This document shows positions 33,364 to 40,729 of a DNA stretch of 64,000 nucleotides, one piece after another. Source of the stretch: Candidatus Eiseniibacteriota bacterium (lineage in GTDB: Bacteria > Eisenbacteria > RBG-16-71-46 > CAZAMP01); the NCBI GenBank assembly GCA_965224245.1, contig OZ245046.1:224001-288000 (forward strand), in the 5' to 3' direction. The notes under the pieces are model-generated. The model was not told the DNA's origin and did no database searches. It saw nothing but the letters and a program-made list of their open reading frames with translations. Position numbers and translations under genes: made by a program. Position 1 is the stretch's first letter, and every line of letters starts with the position of its first letter.

Positions 33364-33981
33364 TCAGTTTCCTTCGGATCGTGGGGTCTCCGAGGCGTCC
33401 GGCTCCGACAGCTCCCGGAACAGCCAGGCGCGGGCCACGGCCCACTCTCGCCGGACGGTGCGGTCGGTCACGCTCAGGGCCTCCGCAATCTCCTGCATGC
33501 TCAGGCCGGCGAAGAACCGCAGCCGGACGATCTCGGCCATTCTCGGGTCTCGATCCTCCATGCGACGGATCGCCCGATCGACGGACATGATGTCCTCGAG
33601 GGGGGGAGGCTCCTGTCCCAGATCGAGGGAGTCGACGGTGAGGCGCTGCCAGCCGCCACCCCGCTTCACCCGGCCCCGGGCCCTGGCGTGCTCGATCAGG
33701 ATCCGGCGCATGGCCTCGGCGGCCGCGGCGTAGAAGTGCCCACGTCCCTCCCAGGTGACGGCCGAGTCGCCGACGAGCCGCATGTACGCCTCGTGAACGA
33801 GCGCGGTGGGCTGAAGCGTGTGGTCGGGTCGCTCGCGCGCCATCCTCTTCGCCGCCGAGCCGCGAAGCTGGTCGTAGACGAGCGGGAGCAGCTCGTCGAT
33901 GGCCCCGGCCTCGCCGCGGGCCGCCCGGTCGAGAATCCTCGTCACGTCTTCGGCGTGGGGGCCGGTCTCGGAGTCCGCCAC
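33364..33981 (-). CDS. ECF RNA polymerase sigma factor, TIGR02999/ECF43-like
   Basis: GGAG RBS, GTG start. ELLPLVYDQLR, HTLQPTALVHEAYMRL, AAEAMRRILIEHAR, KRGG, LRFFAGL, TVRREWAVARAWL. Confidence 0.93.
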   Translation of the reverse strand: MADSETGPHAEDVTRILDRAARGEAGAIDELLPLVYDQLRGSAAKRMARERPDHTLQPTALVHEAYMRLVGDSAVTWEGRGHFYAAAAEAMRRILIEHARARGRVKRGGGWQRLTVDSLDLGQEPPPLEDIMSVDRAIRRMEDRDPRMAEIVRLRFFAGLSMQEIAEALSVTDRTVRREWAVARAWLFRELSEPDASETPRSEGN

Positions 33982-34229
33982 GAGCTCTCCAGGGTAGGGG
34001 ACGCGAAGCAGGGACATGGTCGACCATGGTATCGCGCCGGATGTCGGAAGCCGACCACGTGACGTCCGGAGTCCCGGCCTCATCTCCAGATGGTAGCGCA
34101 CGAGCGCCCATGCCCGCTCTTCGTGACGGGCGCGCGGTCCCGTCCGACCTCGCGGGCGACGCCTGCGCCCACCCTGCTCGTCCGGCACCGGCCTATCACC
34201 GGCCTGAGGTCGCTCTCCCCGCGAGCCCG

Positions 34230-34575
34230 TACTCGTCGGGTACACTGGCTTCAACCATCAACCTCACTTCACGGAGCCCATCATGATCCGATCTCGGCCG
34301 AGTCCTTTCCGGAGCCGGGAAGCACCGGAAGCTATGCCGCGGATGCCACGTTCACCAACGGGACGTTGACGTGGGCGGCCGGATCGATGGACGACGACCA
34401 CCAGGGCGTCACGCTGGACATCCAGGAGCTGACCACGACCATACTGGTCGGGCGCCTCTTCGGTACGCTCGTGCGGCGCGACCCCATGGACCCGGACGTC
34501 ATCCTCGACTCGATCGGCTTGAACATGACGTTCCGGTCGGGACTGTTCGACGGGAGCTGGCCGTGCGCGGAATAG
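34230..34575 (+). pseudogene. probable fragment of a hypothetical gene
   Basis: From about 34290 the frame reads as a credible protein C-terminus (GVTLDIQELTTTILVGRLFGTL...FRSGLFDG). There is no good start, and there may be a frameshift near 34290. Confidence 0.3.
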
Positions 34576-34695
34576 GGTGACGGGTCGCGAGAACCCGGTG
34601 CCACCGCGGGCGCCGGGGCGGCATCGCCGGGACCCTCTCGCTCGACGGGTCCCGGCGTTCAGGCAACGGCGTCGTCGTTCACGTGGAGGCGCGAG

Positions 34696-35274
34696 TCAAC
34701 CCTCCTTCGCCTCGGCGAGCTTCGCGCGCTCGGGGATCTCATCCGGAGGCAGCCCCGAGCTCGCTTCGAGGCGCCCGCTGAAGTTGAAGAACGAGATCAG
34801 TGCCGTGGCCTCCCAGATCGTCTTCTCGCTCCACCCGCTCGCCTTCAGCTCGGCGACGTCGTCGGCGCCCACGAGGCTCGGCGTCTCGGTCAGCTTGCTC
34901 GCGTATCGGAGAAGGGCTCGCGTGTCGGGCTCCAGCTGGTATTCGGGCCAGGTCGTCGCGAACTCGGGCCCCATGTGCTCATCCCGCGTGAGGCGGCGAA
35001 CTGCCGCCGTGTGAAGCCCGAGTCAGGGGGCGCCGCCCACCTTTCCGTTGACCACCGTCGCCAGCATCTCTCGCTGGAGTCGGCTCATGCCGGACGACTT
35101 GCCGAGGTGCAGGTAGTTGTAGAGCATGCCGGCCGGTCCGGCGACTCGGAGATCGACCGCGAGGATCTGGAAGATCCCCGGAACGACGCCGCCATACTGG
35201 CCCCTGACCCAGCGAAAGAAGAGTGTTCGCAGCCCGCGTGCGCGATCGGGCGCGATCGTCCGGATGTTCGCCAT
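34696..35274 (-). CDS. AhpD/carboxymuconolactone decarboxylase-like peroxidase-related protein, probable selenoprotein (192 aa, Sec at codon 84)
   Basis: ORFs 35023-35283 and 34696-34974 are in one frame, separated only by the TGA at 35025-35023. SRLQREMLATVV...GAP(U)LGLH...ALLRYASKLTETP...FNFSGRL matches the AhpD-like layout. Confidence 0.85.
34992..35008 (-). promoter_or_regulatory. putative bacterial SECIS element
   Basis: GGCGGC-AGUUC-GCCGCC hairpin starting 14 nt after the in-frame UGA, with G at loop position 2. Confidence 0.7.
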
Positions 35275-35890
35275 CGTCACCATCCCTTCTCGAGAGAGCT
35301 CGTGCGCGCGACATCAGGCATCGCGTTCGGGTCGAGTTCGAGCGCTGGCCGCGCTCGAGGACGACCGGGCCGTCACGGCAGCCGTGACGCAAAGGAGGCG
35401 AGAGGGTGCTGGATGCGCTGGCAGCCGTCCAGGAGAACCCACCCCGTCATCGCCGTGGGGAGAGGAGCGGAGAGAGGATGTGGGCGGTCGAGAGCGGACC
35501 CCGCTCGCATCACCGGGTGGCTCGGGACGACCGATCCCGCGGCCGACGTTTCGAGCCAGGTTGGTCACCAGAGGCCTCTCCAGCCCCGAGCGGCGCCCGG
35601 TGAGCTCATCGGTGGGTACCGGCGTGGGCACGGATATCGCCGTATCTCCGGCCACCCGGATCCGAACCGTACGATTGTTCAACACCGAAAGGGCCCCGAC
35701 GGCGTACAATTGTGCGTGGCCACATACAGCGACCTCGCTGGATGTCCTCGGTCTATTCAGATTCTTGCATGATGTGAGAGTCAAAAAACGTGACCAGGAT
35801 CGCCCTCCCGCACGCCCGTGCGAGGCTGGTCCGTTCGACACCGCGGTAAGGATGCGCGATGCCGAAAATCTGCACCGCTGGAGGACTCAC

Positions 35891-38800
35891 GTGAGAATCA
35901 CGAGTCGAACTCTGAGCGTTGCGGGCGCGGAGGCATTTGCGGCGGGTCTGTTCGTGATGCTCGTCGCCGCGCTTCCCGCGAACGCGGCCGTCGATGACGT
36001 GGAGCTGGACGGCAACGGATACGACGAGGTCGATCCGGCCGACGACTGGGACGTCATCACGAGCACTGGCGGAAGCTCCGTCATCGCCACACCCGTGATC
36101 CCGGACCCGGCGGGGAACAACATCTTCACCACCGGCGGCTCCAAGGACATCGAGGATGTCTCGTCGTGGGCCTGGACCGAAGGAAGCGTTCCCGACAAGG
36201 ACGAGATCACCAACGCGATGGCCGCGCTCTACACCGGCAACAAGCTCTACTTCGCCGCGGATCGCTTCGCGAACAACGGCGATGCGTCTCTCGGGTTCTG
36301 GCTGTTCCAGAATCCGATCGGTCTCGAGCCGGATGGATCGTTCAGCGGTGTGCACGCCGTCGGGGACATCCTCATCCTGGCCGACTTCGTCCAGGGCGGT
36401 GCGACCACGATCGTGCCCCGCGTGTTCCGGTGGGTAGGCGACGGCTCGGGCTCGGAAGGGAACATCGACGAGATCATCGTGGGCGTCGAGACGGCGAGCG
36501 CCATCACGAACGCGCTCGTCGAGTGCGCACCGTGGCCGTACGAGCCCAAGTTCCCCGAGGAGTGTCCTCCCGGATGTGACGACCCGAACTGCCACCCGCC
36601 GAGCTCGTTCTTCGAGGGCGGTCTCGACCTCGGATTGCTCGGCGTGAACCCCTGCTTCAGCTCCTTCCTGGTCGAGACCCGCTCTTCACAGTCGGTGTCG
36701 GCTCAGCTCAAGGACTTCGTCCTCGGCGACTTCACCACGAACCCGACCTGCGAGATCACCGGTGCGCCCGAACTCTGCGAGGGTGAGACGGCCGAGTACT
36801 GCTCGAGCTGCGATCTTTCCATCGGCACGTACCTGTGGGAGGTCGTGAGCGGTGACGCGACGATCGTGGGCGCCGATGACGGATCCTGCGTCGACGTCCA
36901 GGCGGGCACGACGAACTTCACGCTGAAGCTCAGCGTGGTCGGGGTCGACGGCTGCCCCGGCGAGTTCTTCAAGGAGGTCGTGGTCAATCCGCTCCCGGTC
37001 TGCGACATCGGAGGACCGGACGAGGTCTGCGAGGACTCCGAGAACGAGCACTGTGCATCGTGCGGAACCGGCGACTTCGACTACGCGTGGAGCATCGCGG
37101 GAGACGGCGAGATCACGACGCCCCTCGACGGCTCGTGCGTCACGGTCCTGGCGGGTGCCGACGCGATCCTCACCGGCGTGTCCTCCTACACGCTCACGCT
37201 CACCGTCACCTCGGCGGATGGGTGCGTGGACACGTTCGAGAAGACGGTGAACGTCAACCCCAACCCCGTCGTGACCGTCGCGGACAACGAGGCGTGCGAT
37301 GGCGACACGGCCGAGCTGTGCGCCGAGGTGGCGCTCGGGGAGTATCCCTTCACGTTCTCGTGGACGGGCCCCGGTGGCTTCGTCTCGGCCGACTCGTGCA
37401 TCACGGTCGGCGTGGAGGGGACGTACTCGGTCACCGTCACCGACGCCAACGGCTGCGAGGGCTCCGGCTCCGGTGACCTCACGATCCACGACAACCCCGT
37501 GGTCACGGTCGACGACAACGAAGCATGCGACGGCGACACGGCCGAGCTGTGTGCGGAGGTGTCCGTGGGTCAGTATCCCTTCTCGTTCGCGTGGACGGGC
37601 CCCGGTGGGTTCGTCTCGGCCGACTCGTGCATCACGGTCGGCGTGGAGGGAACGTACTCGGTCACCGTCACCGACGCCAACGGCTGCGAGGGCTCCGGCT
37701 CCGGGGACCTCACGATCCACGACAACCCCGTGGTCACGGTGGACGACAACGAGGCGTGCGACGGCGACACGGCCGAGCTGTGTGCCGGGGTATCGGTGGG
37801 TCAGTACCCGTTCTCGTTCGCGTGGACGGGCCCCGGTGGATTCGTCTCGGCCGACTCGTGCATCACGGTCGGCGTGGAGGGGACGTACTCGGTCACCGTC
37901 ACCGATGCCAACGGCTGCGAAGGCACCGGCTCAGGGGATCTCACGATCCACGACAACCCTGTGGTGACCGTCGACGATCGGGATGCCTGCGAGGGCTTCA
38001 GTGCCGAGCTGTGTGCCGAGGTGTCGGTGGGCCAGTATCCGTTCACGTTCGCGTGGACGGGCCCCGGTGGGTTCGTCTCGGCCGACTCGTGCATCACGGT
38101 CGGCGTCGCGGGCACCTACGAGGTCACGGTGACCGACGACAACGGATGCGTCGGGACGGGATCCGGTGATCTGACGATCAACCCGGGTCTGGTGATCAAG
38201 ATCGACGACCAGGAAGCGTGTGACGGCGATACGGCCGAGCTCTGCGCCCAGGTCAACGGTGGCGAGTATCCGTTCTCGTTCTCGTGGACGGGCCCCGGTG
38301 GGTTCGTCTCGGCCGACTCGTGCATCACGGTCGGCGTCGACGGGACGTACTCGGTCACCGTGGTCGACGTGAACGGGTGCGAGGGCTCCGGCTCCGGAGA
38401 CCTCACGGTTCACGACAACCCGGTGGTCACGGTGGACGACGACGAGGCGTGCGACGGTGACACGGCCGAGCTGTGCGCCGTGGTATCCGGCGGCCAGTAT
38501 CCGTTCACGTTCTCGTGGACGGGCCCCGGTGGGTTCGTCTCGGCCGACTCGTGCATCACCGTCGGCGTGGAGGGTGAGTACTCCGTCATGGTGACGGACG
38601 ACAACGGCTGCGAAGGCACCGGCTCCGGGGATCTCACGATCCACGACAACCCCGTGGTGACCGTCGATGATCGGGAGGCCTGCGAGGGCTTCACGGCCGA
38701 GTTGTGTGCCGAGGTGTCGGTGGGCCAGTATCCGTTCACGTTCGCGTGGACCGGCCCCGGTGGGTTCGTCTCGGCCGACTCGTGCATCACGGTCGGCGAC

Positions 38801-40729
38801 GCGGGCACCTACGAGGTCACGGTGACCGACGACAACGGATGCGTCGGGACGGGATCCGGTGATCTGACGATCAACCCGGGTCTGGTGATCAAGATCGACG
38901 ACCAGGAAGCGTGTGACGGCGATACAGCCGAGCTCTGCGCCCAGGTCAACGGTGGCGAGTATCCGTTCTCGTTCTCGTGGACGGGCCCCGGTGGGTTCGT
39001 CTCGGCCGACTCGTGCATCACGGTCGGCGTCGACGGGACGTACTCGGTCACCGTGGTCGACGTGAACGGGTGCGAGGGCTCCGGCTCCGGAGACCTCACG
39101 GTTCACGACAACCCGGTGGTCACGGTGGACGACGACGAGGCGTGCGACGGTGACACGGCCGAGCTGTGCGCCGTGGTATCCGGCGGCCAGTATCCGTTCA
39201 CGTTCTCGTGGACGGGCCCCGGTGGGTTCGTCTCGGCCGACTCGTGCATCGCGGTCGGCGTCGGGGGCACGTACGAGGTCACGGTGACCGACGACAACGG
39301 GTGCGAAGGCTCCGGGTCGGGTGACGCGACCATCCACGACAACCCGACGTGCTCGCTCGATCCCCCCGATCCGCTGCCCGAGTGCGGCTCCACGGGGAAC
39401 ACGCTGAGCGGTCCGGACGGGATGACCACGTACCTGTGGGAGCTCACGTCCGCTCCCGCCGGCTGGATGATCACCGGCGGTGCCGACCAGCAGACCGTCA
39501 CGTACACGGCCGGCGATGAAGGGGATGCGACGTTCCAGCTGACCATCACCGACGGCAACGGCTGCGTGGGCATGTGTGACGTCATGTTCTCGTGCACGCC
39601 GCCGCCTCCGGTCGACAAGTTCTGCACGTTCACGCAGGGCTTCTACGGCAACCCGGGTGGTCGCTTCAACGGGATCCCCACGCTGGATCTGATCAAGGCG
39701 TTGATCACGCCGGGGAACCCCCTCGTGGTCGGCGTGCCCGGCATGGCCCGTTCGCTCGAAGGCCTGCTCGGTGGCGGTGGTCGCTCCGTGACCTGGGAGG
39801 GAGGAGCGTCCGGCGGATACGTGTTCGAGGACTGCCCGGAGGAGCCCAACGGGGATCCCGGCGTCGCCGAACACTGCGTGATCGAGCGTCTGCCGGCCGG
39901 TGGTCCCGCGGAGGAGCTTCCGCTGGGGCTCGGTGACGTGACCGTCGATCCCTCGGACTGCGACACCGATCCGCCGCTGCCGATGCGGAACGGCAAGTAT
40001 CGGAACGTGCTGCTCGGTCAGACGATCACGCTGTCGCTGAACGTCCGGGTCGACGAGAACCTGAGCGATCTCGGGGTCTGCCGCGTGATGAAGACCGCGT
40101 CGGTGAACCCGGGACCGGACGGATGCTACGGGACCGAAGACGACCTGCTGCATCATCCGGGCGGAGACACGACGAGCGTGTACATTCCCGAGTCGGTCCT
40201 CCAGAAGCTGGACGACGACCCGGGTCTCGACACGACCGTCGGGGGCATTCTCGAGCTCGCGAACTGGGCGCTCGCCGGCCTGCTGGATCCGGATACGGAC
40301 CCGAGTCCGAGCGAGATCAGCGACGCGGCGGCGGCCATCAACGAAGGCTTCGACGAGTGCCGCTTCCTGATCTACTGCGGTGAAGGCGATGCCTCCGATC
40401 CAATGCTGGTGACGTCGCCGACCCGCGAGGACCACGTCCCGATCCCGTTCTCGCTGGGGGGCAACTACCCGAACCCGGTCCGCAGTGCCACGACGATTCA
40501 CTTCACGCTCGCGGAGCGGAGTGAGATCCGACTCGCCGTCTACGACGTCTCGGGTCGGCAGGTCGCCCTCCTCCTGGAGGGGTCGCTGAGGGCCGGAAGC
40601 CACCGTGCGGTGTGGGACATGGTCGATCGAGGGGACTTCTCGGCCGGAATCTACTTCTACCGGCTCGATGCTGCCGGTGCCAGCGGCTCGGCGTTCACCG
40701 AGACCCGCAGGATGCTGGTCCTGAGGTAA
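35891..40729 (+). CDS. large secreted Cys-rich repeat protein (SprB/PKD-like Ig repeats) with C-terminal FlgD/T9SS-like domain, ~1612 aa
   Basis: GGAGGA RBS before GTG 35891, signal peptide ending ANA. Repeats GTYSVTVTDANGC, CTFTQGFYGN domain, tail NYPNP...YDVSGRQV...AGIYFYRL...TRRMLVLR. Confidence 0.9.
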   Translation: MRITSRTLSVAGAEAFAAGLFVMLVAALPANAAVDDVELDGNGYDEVDPADDWDVITSTGGSSVIATPVIPDPAGNNIFTTGGSKDIEDVSSWAWTEGSVPDKDEITNAMAALYTGNKLYFAADRFANNGDASLGFWLFQNPIGLEPDGSFSGVHAVGDILILADFVQGGATTIVPRVFRWVGDGSGSEGNIDEIIVGVETASAITNALVECAPWPYEPKFPEECPPGCDDPNCHPPSSFFEGGLDLGLLGVNPCFSSFLVETRSSQSVSAQLKDFVLGDFTTNPTCEITGAPELCEGETAEYCSSCDLSIGTYLWEVVSGDATIVGADDGSCVDVQAGTTNFTLKLSVVGVDGCPGEFFKEVVVNPLPVCDIGGPDEVCEDSENEHCASCGTGDFDYAWSIAGDGEITTPLDGSCVTVLAGADAILTGVSSYTLTLTVTSADGCVDTFEKTVNVNPNPVVTVADNEACDGDTAELCAEVALGEYPFTFSWTGPGGFVSADSCITVGVEGTYSVTVTDANGCEGSGSGDLTIHDNPVVTVDDNEACDGDTAELCAEVSVGQYPFSFAWTGPGGFVSADSCITVGVEGTYSVTVTDANGCEGSGSGDLTIHDNPVVTVDDNEACDGDTAELCAGVSVGQYPFSFAWTGPGGFVSADSCITVGVEGTYSVTVTDANGCEGTGSGDLTIHDNPVVTVDDRDACEGFSAELCAEVSVGQYPFTFAWTGPGGFVSADSCITVGVAGTYEVTVTDDNGCVGTGSGDLTINPGLVIKIDDQEACDGDTAELCAQVNGGEYPFSFSWTGPGGFVSADSCITVGVDGTYSVTVVDVNGCEGSGSGDLTVHDNPVVTVDDDEACDGDTAELCAVVSGGQYPFTFSWTGPGGFVSADSCITVGVEGEYSVMVTDDNGCEGTGSGDLTIHDNPVVTVDDREACEGFTAELCAEVSVGQYPFTFAWTGPGGFVSADSCITVGDAGTYEVTVTDDNGCVGTGSGDLTINPGLVIKIDDQEACDGDTAELCAQVNGGEYPFSFSWTGPGGFVSADSCITVGVDGTYSVTVVDVNGCEGSGSGDLTVHDNPVVTVDDDEACDGDTAELCAVVSGGQYPFTFSWTGPGGFVSADSCIAVGVGGTYEVTVTDDNGCEGSGSGDATIHDNPTCSLDPPDPLPECGSTGNTLSGPDGMTTYLWELTSAPAGWMITGGADQQTVTYTAGDEGDATFQLTITDGNGCVGMCDVMFSCTPPPPVDKFCTFTQGFYGNPGGRFNGIPTLDLIKALITPGNPLVVGVPGMARSLEGLLGGGGRSVTWEGGASGGYVFEDCPEEPNGDPGVAEHCVIERLPAGGPAEELPLGLGDVTVDPSDCDTDPPLPMRNGKYRNVLLGQTITLSLNVRVDENLSDLGVCRVMKTASVNPGPDGCYGTEDDLLHHPGGDTTSVYIPESVLQKLDDDPGLDTTVGGILELANWALAGLLDPDTDPSPSEISDAAAAINEGFDECRFLIYCGEGDASDPMLVTSPTREDHVPIPFSLGGNYPNPVRSATTIHFTLAERSEIRLAVYDVSGRQVALLLEGSLRAGSHRAVWDMVDRGDFSAGIYFYRLDAAGASGSAFTETRRMLVLR
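37262..39340 (+). repeat. intragenic tandem array, 9 x 231 bp (77 aa)
   Basis: Units begin at 37262, 37493, 37724, 37955, 38186, 38417, 38648, 38879 and 39110. All share WTGPGGFVSADSCI. Confidence 0.95.

Follow-up and report, generated by a model that had tools for sequence, protein, structure and literature searches.

Two short open reading frames (ORFs) lie in a single frame on the minus strand of a bacterial contig, and the question they raise is whether they are two genes, the remains of one, or one gene whose internal UGA is read as an amino acid. They occupy positions 34696 to 35274 of the window, by which we mean the whole 64,000-nucleotide stretch analyzed here (positions 224,001 to 288,000 of contig OZ245046.1, from a Candidatus Eiseniibacteriota bacterium, assembly GCA_965224245.1). 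Comparison with related sequences confirms that the two frames are one real gene, predicted to encode an AhpD-like selenoprotein on a widespread, mis-annotated branch that lacks the usual partner cysteine. We consider it very probable that the product is a single AhpD-like selenoprotein of 192 residues, in which selenocysteine (Sec) is inserted at position 84 by means of a hairpin in the mRNA, the first Cys of the usual CxxC motif is replaced by Gly81, and the oxidized enzyme is recycled by an outside thiol.

The gene (34696 to 35274, minus strand) runs from an ATG at 35274 to a terminal TGA at 34698-34696 and comprises 192 codons plus that TGA; the sole internal stop is a TGA at 35025-35023. 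Translation table 11 divides the frame into ORFs of 86 amino acids (35283-35023) and 92 amino acids (34974-34696). The initial annotation had taken these two ORFs for a single frame broken only by the UGA, and inspection of the frame agrees. The read-through product includes ...VNGKVGGAP-U-LGLHTAAVRRL... and, as had also been claimed, its 192 residues contain no Cys, so that Sec would be the only thiol or selenol residue of the protein. The ORF listing puts the upstream start at 35283 (MVTMANI...); because orthologues open with MANI or MASI, 35274 is the better start. Two contig sets from one sample, possibly the sample behind the window, are identical across 34600-35400; this excludes an assembly slip in the present record alone and does not count as independent support. 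That standard annotation would split the gene is amply borne out in the databases. Many entries are C-terminal pieces of 106-108 amino acids, one of them titled "hypothetical protein" at NCBI, and many of the 120 matches listed are pieces of this size that start just past residue 84. Conversely, among the 150 matches listed, eight N-terminal pieces stop at the Pro before the TGA (seven end in ...GAP, one in ...GKP).

One rival reading takes the UGA at face value: it ends translation, the locus is either a pseudogene or a pair of separate small genes (86 and 92 amino acids), and the downstream hairpin only reflects GC-rich codons for Ala and Arg. Table 11 does split the frame, gene callers worldwide report the halves apart, and the hairpin is unexceptional against shuffled sequences. 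The conservation of the codon argues otherwise. At the DNA level we compared 162 loci (80 from species genomes, 80 from metagenomes, the window's own locus, and one relative), and the codon aligned to U84 is TGA in 159 of them, TTA in 3, and TGG in none; GGAP stands directly before the stop in 162 of 162. A later set of 11 loci, three of which sit on contigs already counted, has a stop TGA in all 11. Overall, TGA is found in 167 of 170 distinct loci, TTA in 3, and TGG in 0, record titles name about 15 phyla, and TGA is retained down to 55% protein identity. The two sides of the codon also behave alike. Differences at codon positions 1, 2, and 3 amount to 0.21, 0.11, and 0.57 in the upstream half and 0.20, 0.15, and 0.50 in the downstream half (148 distinct sequences), and a further in-frame stop occurs in just 1 of the 148; this pattern marks both halves as protein-coding in a shared frame and subject to purifying selection. 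The downstream half has no conserved start, and the window's next ATG lies 16 codons on, within a conserved helix. Together with synonymous sites in the hairpin stem that are frozen beyond codon bias and with SelA in 36 of 37 carrier genomes (both described below), these observations leave a true stop barely credible.

A UGA that is translated need not be translated as Sec: a near-cognate tRNA or an altered code could place Trp, Cys, or Arg there instead. The protein search returned 315 relatives. Some database entries speak for such a reading, as the closest full-length ones show W at residue 84 and one fragment shows R. Residue 84 is C in P0005 (72% identical, GGAP-C), L in P0008, and C in more distant entries (P0022-P0033, 45-53% identical), with Cys also encoded at the DNA level in locus L196. 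Thus, the homologue comparison proposed in the initial annotation, for Cys or UGA at codon 84, yields TGA or Cys, and TGG in none of the 170 DNA loci. Tryptophan at this site had been named as a sign against Sec; it is absent from the DNA and present in about 19 database proteins, all of them on contigs of 2.7 kb or less, where the W most likely arose from TGA translated under genetic code 4. None of the W entries among P0002-P0020 is encoded exactly by any fetched locus, and a genome scan with P0011 gave only relatives of 54-65% identity, every one with a stop at the site. Because 117 of the 162 orthologues, this gene included, terminate with TGA, the codon evidently serves as an ordinary stop in these organisms. 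Given in addition the complete Sec machinery and the conserved hairpin of selenocysteine insertion sequence (SECIS) type, decoding as a standard amino acid appears very improbable, and the TGA at 35025-35023 is very likely a Sec codon.

The genome that carries the gene (6.9 Mb) is equipped to read it. SelA (516 bits), SelB (324 bits), and SelD (378 bits) all score over cut-off, as does the tRNA-Sec (71.9 bits), for which ARAGORN gives the anticodon TCA; selA, selB, selC, and selD, whose presence had been proposed as a check, are therefore all found. SelA is likewise over cut-off in 36 of 37 other searched genomes carrying the TGA form. It was not found in the sole tested genome with the Cys form (L196); the genomes searched for SelA are metagenome-assembled genomes (MAGs), so such absences are weak evidence. 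As a separate observation, the genome's own selD (G000:C1:4218184-4219107, L010) has one in-frame TGA, and the selenophosphate synthetase SelD is itself probably a selenoprotein.

The signal that would direct Sec insertion is a hairpin at 34992-35008 (minus strand), with a stem of GGCGGC (35008-35003) and GCCGCC (34997-34992) around an AGUUC loop (35002-34998). Its six base pairs begin 14 nucleotides past the A of the UGA, which is 17 nucleotides past the U. The initial annotation had described this stem, loop, and distance, and they are read both in the sequence and in the minimum-free-energy structure. Since a lone fold of this kind is unexceptional in GC-rich sequence, the weight of the hairpin rests on its conservation. 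An alignment of 141 distinct orthologous segments gives 846 cells for the six pairs, of which 98.7% are paired; 0 of 500 shuffles equal this, and sliding the stem partner lowers pairing to 33-78%. A compensatory change from G-C to A-U occurs in seven cells of the stem alignment, and RNAalifold independently returns five of the six stem pairs. The hairpin lies inside the codons for T89-A-A-V-R-R-L95, so synonymous sites test the stem directly. Among 40 conserved fourfold-degenerate sites, the three that vary least all fall in the stem, with third bases of G in 138 of 138 sequences at Ala90, C in 133 and T in 13 at Arg94, and C in 104 and T in 40 at Arg93; CGN Arg codons outside the stem (R65, R68, and R119) show all four bases. 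The second base of the loop, which is the first base of the Val codon, is a conserved G, and the loop follows the pattern N-G-U-U/N-C. The Sargasso Sea survey describes bacterial SECIS elements as stem-loops placed closely 3' of the UGA, whose small apical loop includes a G (PMC1088965). Both traits, a stem-loop just 3' of the UGA and a small loop containing G, are present here.

What kind of protein is it? The window protein matches the NCBIfam model TIGR01926, "peroxidase-related enzyme," over residues 29-178 with 89.1 bits against a cut-off of 81.8, a narrow pass. No Pfam family matches at E <= 0.1, PF02627 (CMD) included, nor does the AhpD core domain TIGR00778 at that threshold; TIGR00777 (the Mycobacterium tuberculosis-type AhpD) does not match, and NCBIfam release 20.0 holds no dedicated model that matches the protein. 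A profile of the family compared with the PDB matches Mlr4105 (3c1l) at E = 1.3e-32, followed by 2pfx, 2oyo, 6k40 (Deinococcus radiodurans DR1765), and 2prr, at E values up to 7.4e-15. The AlphaFold model (predicted local distance difference test score, 95.2) has the all-helical AhpD-like fold, with template modeling (TM) scores of 0.79-0.84 to 6k40 and 3c1l and 0.77-0.84 across 6k40, 3c1l, 2pfx, 2prr, and 2oyo. These matches place the protein in the AhpD-like "peroxidase-related" branch (TIGR01926, COG2128/YciW) of the AhpD/CMD superfamily.

In the same profile alignment (to 3c1l, 2pfx, 2oyo, and 6k40), the CxxC motif lines up with Gly81 at its first Cys and with U84 at its second, in agreement with the initial annotation, which had placed the UGA at the second Cys and a Gly at the first. 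In M. tuberculosis AhpD we take the nucleophile to be the second Cys, Cys133. The proton relay of AhpD is given as Glu118/Cys130/His132/Cys133/His137 in M. tuberculosis and as Glu36/Cys48/Tyr50/Cys51/His55 in Pseudomonas aeruginosa PA0269, and that report calls both Cys invariant in the family (PMC3141380). The window protein has E69, G81, P83, U84, and H88 at exactly these spacings, and thus keeps the Glu, the second Cys (as Sec), and the His, and has lost the first Cys. The codon of Glu69, 15 residues ahead of U84 and E in most relatives, lies at 35068-35070; that of Gly81, at the first-Cys position and within the GGAP found at all 162 loci, lies at 35032-35034; the UGA read as Sec lies at 35023-35025; and that of His88, four residues after U84 and nearly invariant, lies at 35011-35013, all on the minus strand. 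Around the second Cys position, then, the relay Glu (-15) and His (+4) are both in place, and the partner redox residue, the first Cys of CxxC or CxxU, is missing: the motif is G81-A-P-U84, with no conserved Cys elsewhere.

The loss of the partner Cys extends across the branch. No Cys at all is present in 140 of the 162 orthologues, and the other 22 have one, scattered over position 146 (18 sequences), 165 (3), and 193 (1). Inside the Sec clade, P0005 has just one Cys. The more distant homologues of Cys form that were examined, 12 of 12, have retained another Cys nearby, as C-S-C or C-x4-C (two residues ahead of the active Cys or five behind it). In an exhaustive profile search that gave 92 full-length representatives, 59 have E..CxxC..H, 4 have CxxW, and 13 lack the first Cys and have the second; just 16 clusters reach E <= 1e-30, and these are mostly split pieces. 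Genomes of the same class also hold classical CxxU genes split by TGA, with NHCHY-U in L034 (G014:C22, P0132) and NRCVY-U in L024 (G021:C1, P0133). Both share about 30% identity with the window protein; TIGR01926 gives them 143 bits, and they match TIGR00778 as well. NCBIfam has "(seleno)protein" models for other AhpD/YciW branches, namely NF053654 (GroundWater_YciW) and NF041238 (AhpD_rel_CFYUT), seen among the matches of P0135 and of P0132/P0133, and the window protein has no match to either at E <= 0.1.

We built a quick tree from 62 selected rows (including 31 of the 162 orthologous loci and 12 CxxC representatives); many of its forks are open, and its outgroup branches are long. In it, all the forms that lack the first Cys group together in a separate clade of 48 rows (SH-like approximate likelihood ratio test support, 99). 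Most Sec forms fall in a subclade of 33 rows (support, 97) that also holds P0005 (Cys) and L186 (Leu). The tree leaves the root, and the direction of change between Cys and Sec at the base of the clade, undecided. Within the Sec clade, residue 84 has changed in a single step to Cys in P0005 and to Leu in the TTA loci; the latter are nested beside a Rubrobacteraceae sequence. Phyla are intermixed throughout the gene tree, which suggests gene transfer, with errors in MAG binning also possible.

How might such an enzyme work with one redox residue? We propose that UGA84 would be decoded as Sec by SelB and tRNA-Sec, directed by the 6-bp hairpin that starts 17 nucleotides past the U of the UGA. The active site would then consist of the relay residues E69 and H88 with Sec84 at the second CxxC position and Gly81 in place of the first Cys. 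Because the protein has no Cys, intramolecular closure to a selenenylsulfide is impossible. The selenolate would attack an oxidized substrate, which could be a hydroperoxide or else a disulfide or sulfenic acid carried by a partner. This would leave Se-OH or an intermolecular Se-S, which a thiol from outside, either of low molecular weight or in a thioredoxin-type protein, would then reduce, in a redox cycle like that of glutathione peroxidases and 1-Cys peroxiredoxins. Those enzymes rely on one redox-active chalcogen that is regenerated by a thiol from elsewhere. For the window protein, the analysis shows a single gene with a conserved UGA and hairpin, a genome with the Sec machinery, the fold, and the alignment of the motif; we infer the substrate and the external reductant. 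The phenotype of a homologue suggests that the substrate is a peroxide or disulfide: a review states that a D. radiodurans mutant lacking DR1765 is sensitive to H2O2 and that its rescue needs the CxxC motif (PMC8945050).

The protein could also be a selenoprotein that is not a peroxide or disulfide reductase, its lone Sec acting on a small organic molecule (by reductive dehalogenation or detoxification of an electrophile) under the control of a TetR regulator. Sec enzymes such as the deiodinases dehalogenate. The CMD-family debrominase Bmp8 (6ohj, 6ohi) matches the profile at E = 0.0018, with TM scores of 0.65-0.68, and the recurrent neighbors across 82 genome loci are a divergent TetR gene (41 loci), a secreted protein of about 294 amino acids (23), a cupin (13), and an ODP/metallo-beta-lactamase (6), with no AhpC or peroxiredoxin recurring among them. 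The Bmp8 match is weak, however, TetR neighbors are common and unspecific, and TetR, cupin, the protein of about 294 amino acids, and ODP/metallo-beta-lactamase are all absent from the window's own locus. The nearest solved relatives, moreover, are CxxC proteins described as "antioxidant defence" or AhpD-like, among them the DR1765 whose loss causes peroxide sensitivity. We therefore regard action on a small molecule, taken as an alternative to peroxide or disulfide reduction, as unlikely. In the loci that have it, the protein of about 294 amino acids (e.g., L043:1599-2483) is encoded directly upstream on the same strand at a median distance of 41 nucleotides and has a lipoprotein-like N-terminus; it matches no NCBIfam model and gives only a sub-threshold TTHB210-like match in Pfam, and its gene may be cotranscribed with the selenoprotein gene.

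A bolder proposal, which we put forward tentatively and think possible rather than probable, is that these proteins form a mechanistically distinct class of AhpD-fold enzyme with one selenium as the only redox atom. Sec would have allowed the loss of the resolving Cys, and the enzyme may act on a small molecule sensed by TetR, rather than on peroxides via AhpC, by chemistry like that of glutathione peroxidases or deiodinases. Behind the idea that Sec permitted the loss is a contrast within the family: the distant Cys forms that were examined all keep a second Cys, whereas the Sec forms keep none.

Several points weigh against our preferred reading, a Sec-containing AhpD-like enzyme recycled by an outside thiol. 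Three metagenome loci (L186, L188, and L191) carry TTA (Leu) at the Sec codon and encode P0008 exactly; their GC content is about 58-61% and their hairpin is intact (with A-U instead of G-U). In these loci a single-base change seems to have removed the redox residue from a gene that is conserved in other respects. A 95-amino-acid database fragment, P0151, shows Arg at the position of U84 (EGAP-R-LGMH), which would be one base off TGA if the codon were CGA and may be a variant or an error. Some lineages therefore appear able to do without a redox residue at position 84, and in some of the W entries a real Trp is possible. SelA was not found in the carrier genome G059 (one of the 37 searched, and a MAG). 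Single-sequence folding of the hairpin is unexceptional (z scores of -0.67 and -0.66, with 49 and 52 of 200 shuffles as good), and a search of 34850-35150 against Rfam found no family, only a chance snoRNA-like match (20.5 bits, where the gathering score is 60). The conserved neighborhood (TetR, cupin, and secreted protein) gives no pointer to peroxide defense or to an AhpC partner, and the mechanism past a single Sec is itself conjectural.

In the window the selenoprotein gene stands alone. On the minus strand, a Shine-Dalgarno-like GAAGGGA at 35283-35289, read off the sequence only, lies 8 nucleotides ahead of the ATG at 35274. A strong GC-rich hairpin 3' of the stop codon (34625-34657, minus strand), predicted by folding and perhaps a terminator, has no U-tract; the 91-nucleotide stretch that contains it folds at -46.7 kcal/mol (z score of -3.18, equaled by 1 of 200 shuffles). 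A scan of 34300-35900 for promoters and consensus terminators found no match, this hairpin included. Downstream by 444 nucleotides, on the same strand, is a gene for an extracytoplasmic function sigma factor (33364-34254; PF07638, 202.7 bits). Upstream, on the plus strand, is a very large ORF (35126-40729, at most 1867 amino acids), the true start of which is probably later. It contains about a dozen near-identical repeats of about 90 amino acids (…DNPVVTVDD.EACDGDTAELCA…) with weak PKD/Ig-like Pfam matches, and its C-terminal Por_Secre_tail sorting domain falls just below the cut-off (26.9 versus 27 bits).

The gene is present in at least 167 loci from about 15 phyla, as judged from record titles, and database annotation routinely either breaks it into two "hypothetical" pieces or gives it a Trp. 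A branch with Sec as its only redox residue is also a natural test of which CxxC position does the chemistry, and of whether selenium can replace a resolving Cys.

AhpD-like selenoproteins as such are not new. The Sargasso Sea survey lists 27 sequences of the AhpD-like (COG2128) family with the motif CxxU (PMC1088965), the Global Ocean Sampling (GOS) survey lists 299, again CxxU (PMC2398784), and reviews of 2022 and 2026 give "AhpD-like protein, COG2128/TIGR01926, CxxU" (PMC9312934, PMC13188914); other AhpD-type entries are likewise CxxU in the portions of these listings that are accessible. The window protein shares with this family ("AhpD-like 1" of the Sargasso and GOS surveys) TIGR01926, the fold, Sec at the second CxxC residue, and a SECIS element just downstream. 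It differs in that the motif, CxxU in the accessible print, is here G-A-P-U in a protein with zero Cys. In the accessible text of the printed literature a GxxU form of AhpD-like protein was not found; the BSepDB family table and the GOS alignments may hold it. AhpD-like selenoproteins have thus been in print since 2005 as CxxU, and it is the loss of the partner Cys alone that those sources leave unlisted. According to the 2026 review, differing Sec motifs define separate subfamilies.

The likeness to other known systems is partial. With M. tuberculosis AhpD (1knc, 1gu9) and PA0269 (2o4d), the Glu, Cys, and His of the relay correspond at identical spacings to E69, U84, and H88 (PMC3141380), and their Cys130 or Cys48 corresponds to Gly81 and their His132 or Tyr50 to Pro83. 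M. tuberculosis AhpD is nevertheless a poor match in fold (TM scores of 0.39-0.48), and the window protein has neither a TIGR00777 match nor a recurrent ahpC neighbor. Motifs without a resolving residue are listed for the glutathione peroxidases (UxxT) and the peroxiredoxins (TxxU) in two sources (PMC1088965, PMC13188914). The glutathione peroxidases, peroxiredoxins, and 1-Cys peroxiredoxins have a thioredoxin fold, in contrast to the all-helical AhpD fold here, so the likeness is one of working only and membership is not claimed. The solved CxxC proteins (3c1l, 2pfx, 2oyo, 6k40, and 2prr) have the same Glu...x15...Cys...x3...His spacing as the window protein and are 20-32% identical to it over the structural alignment, but they contain both Cys and no Sec.

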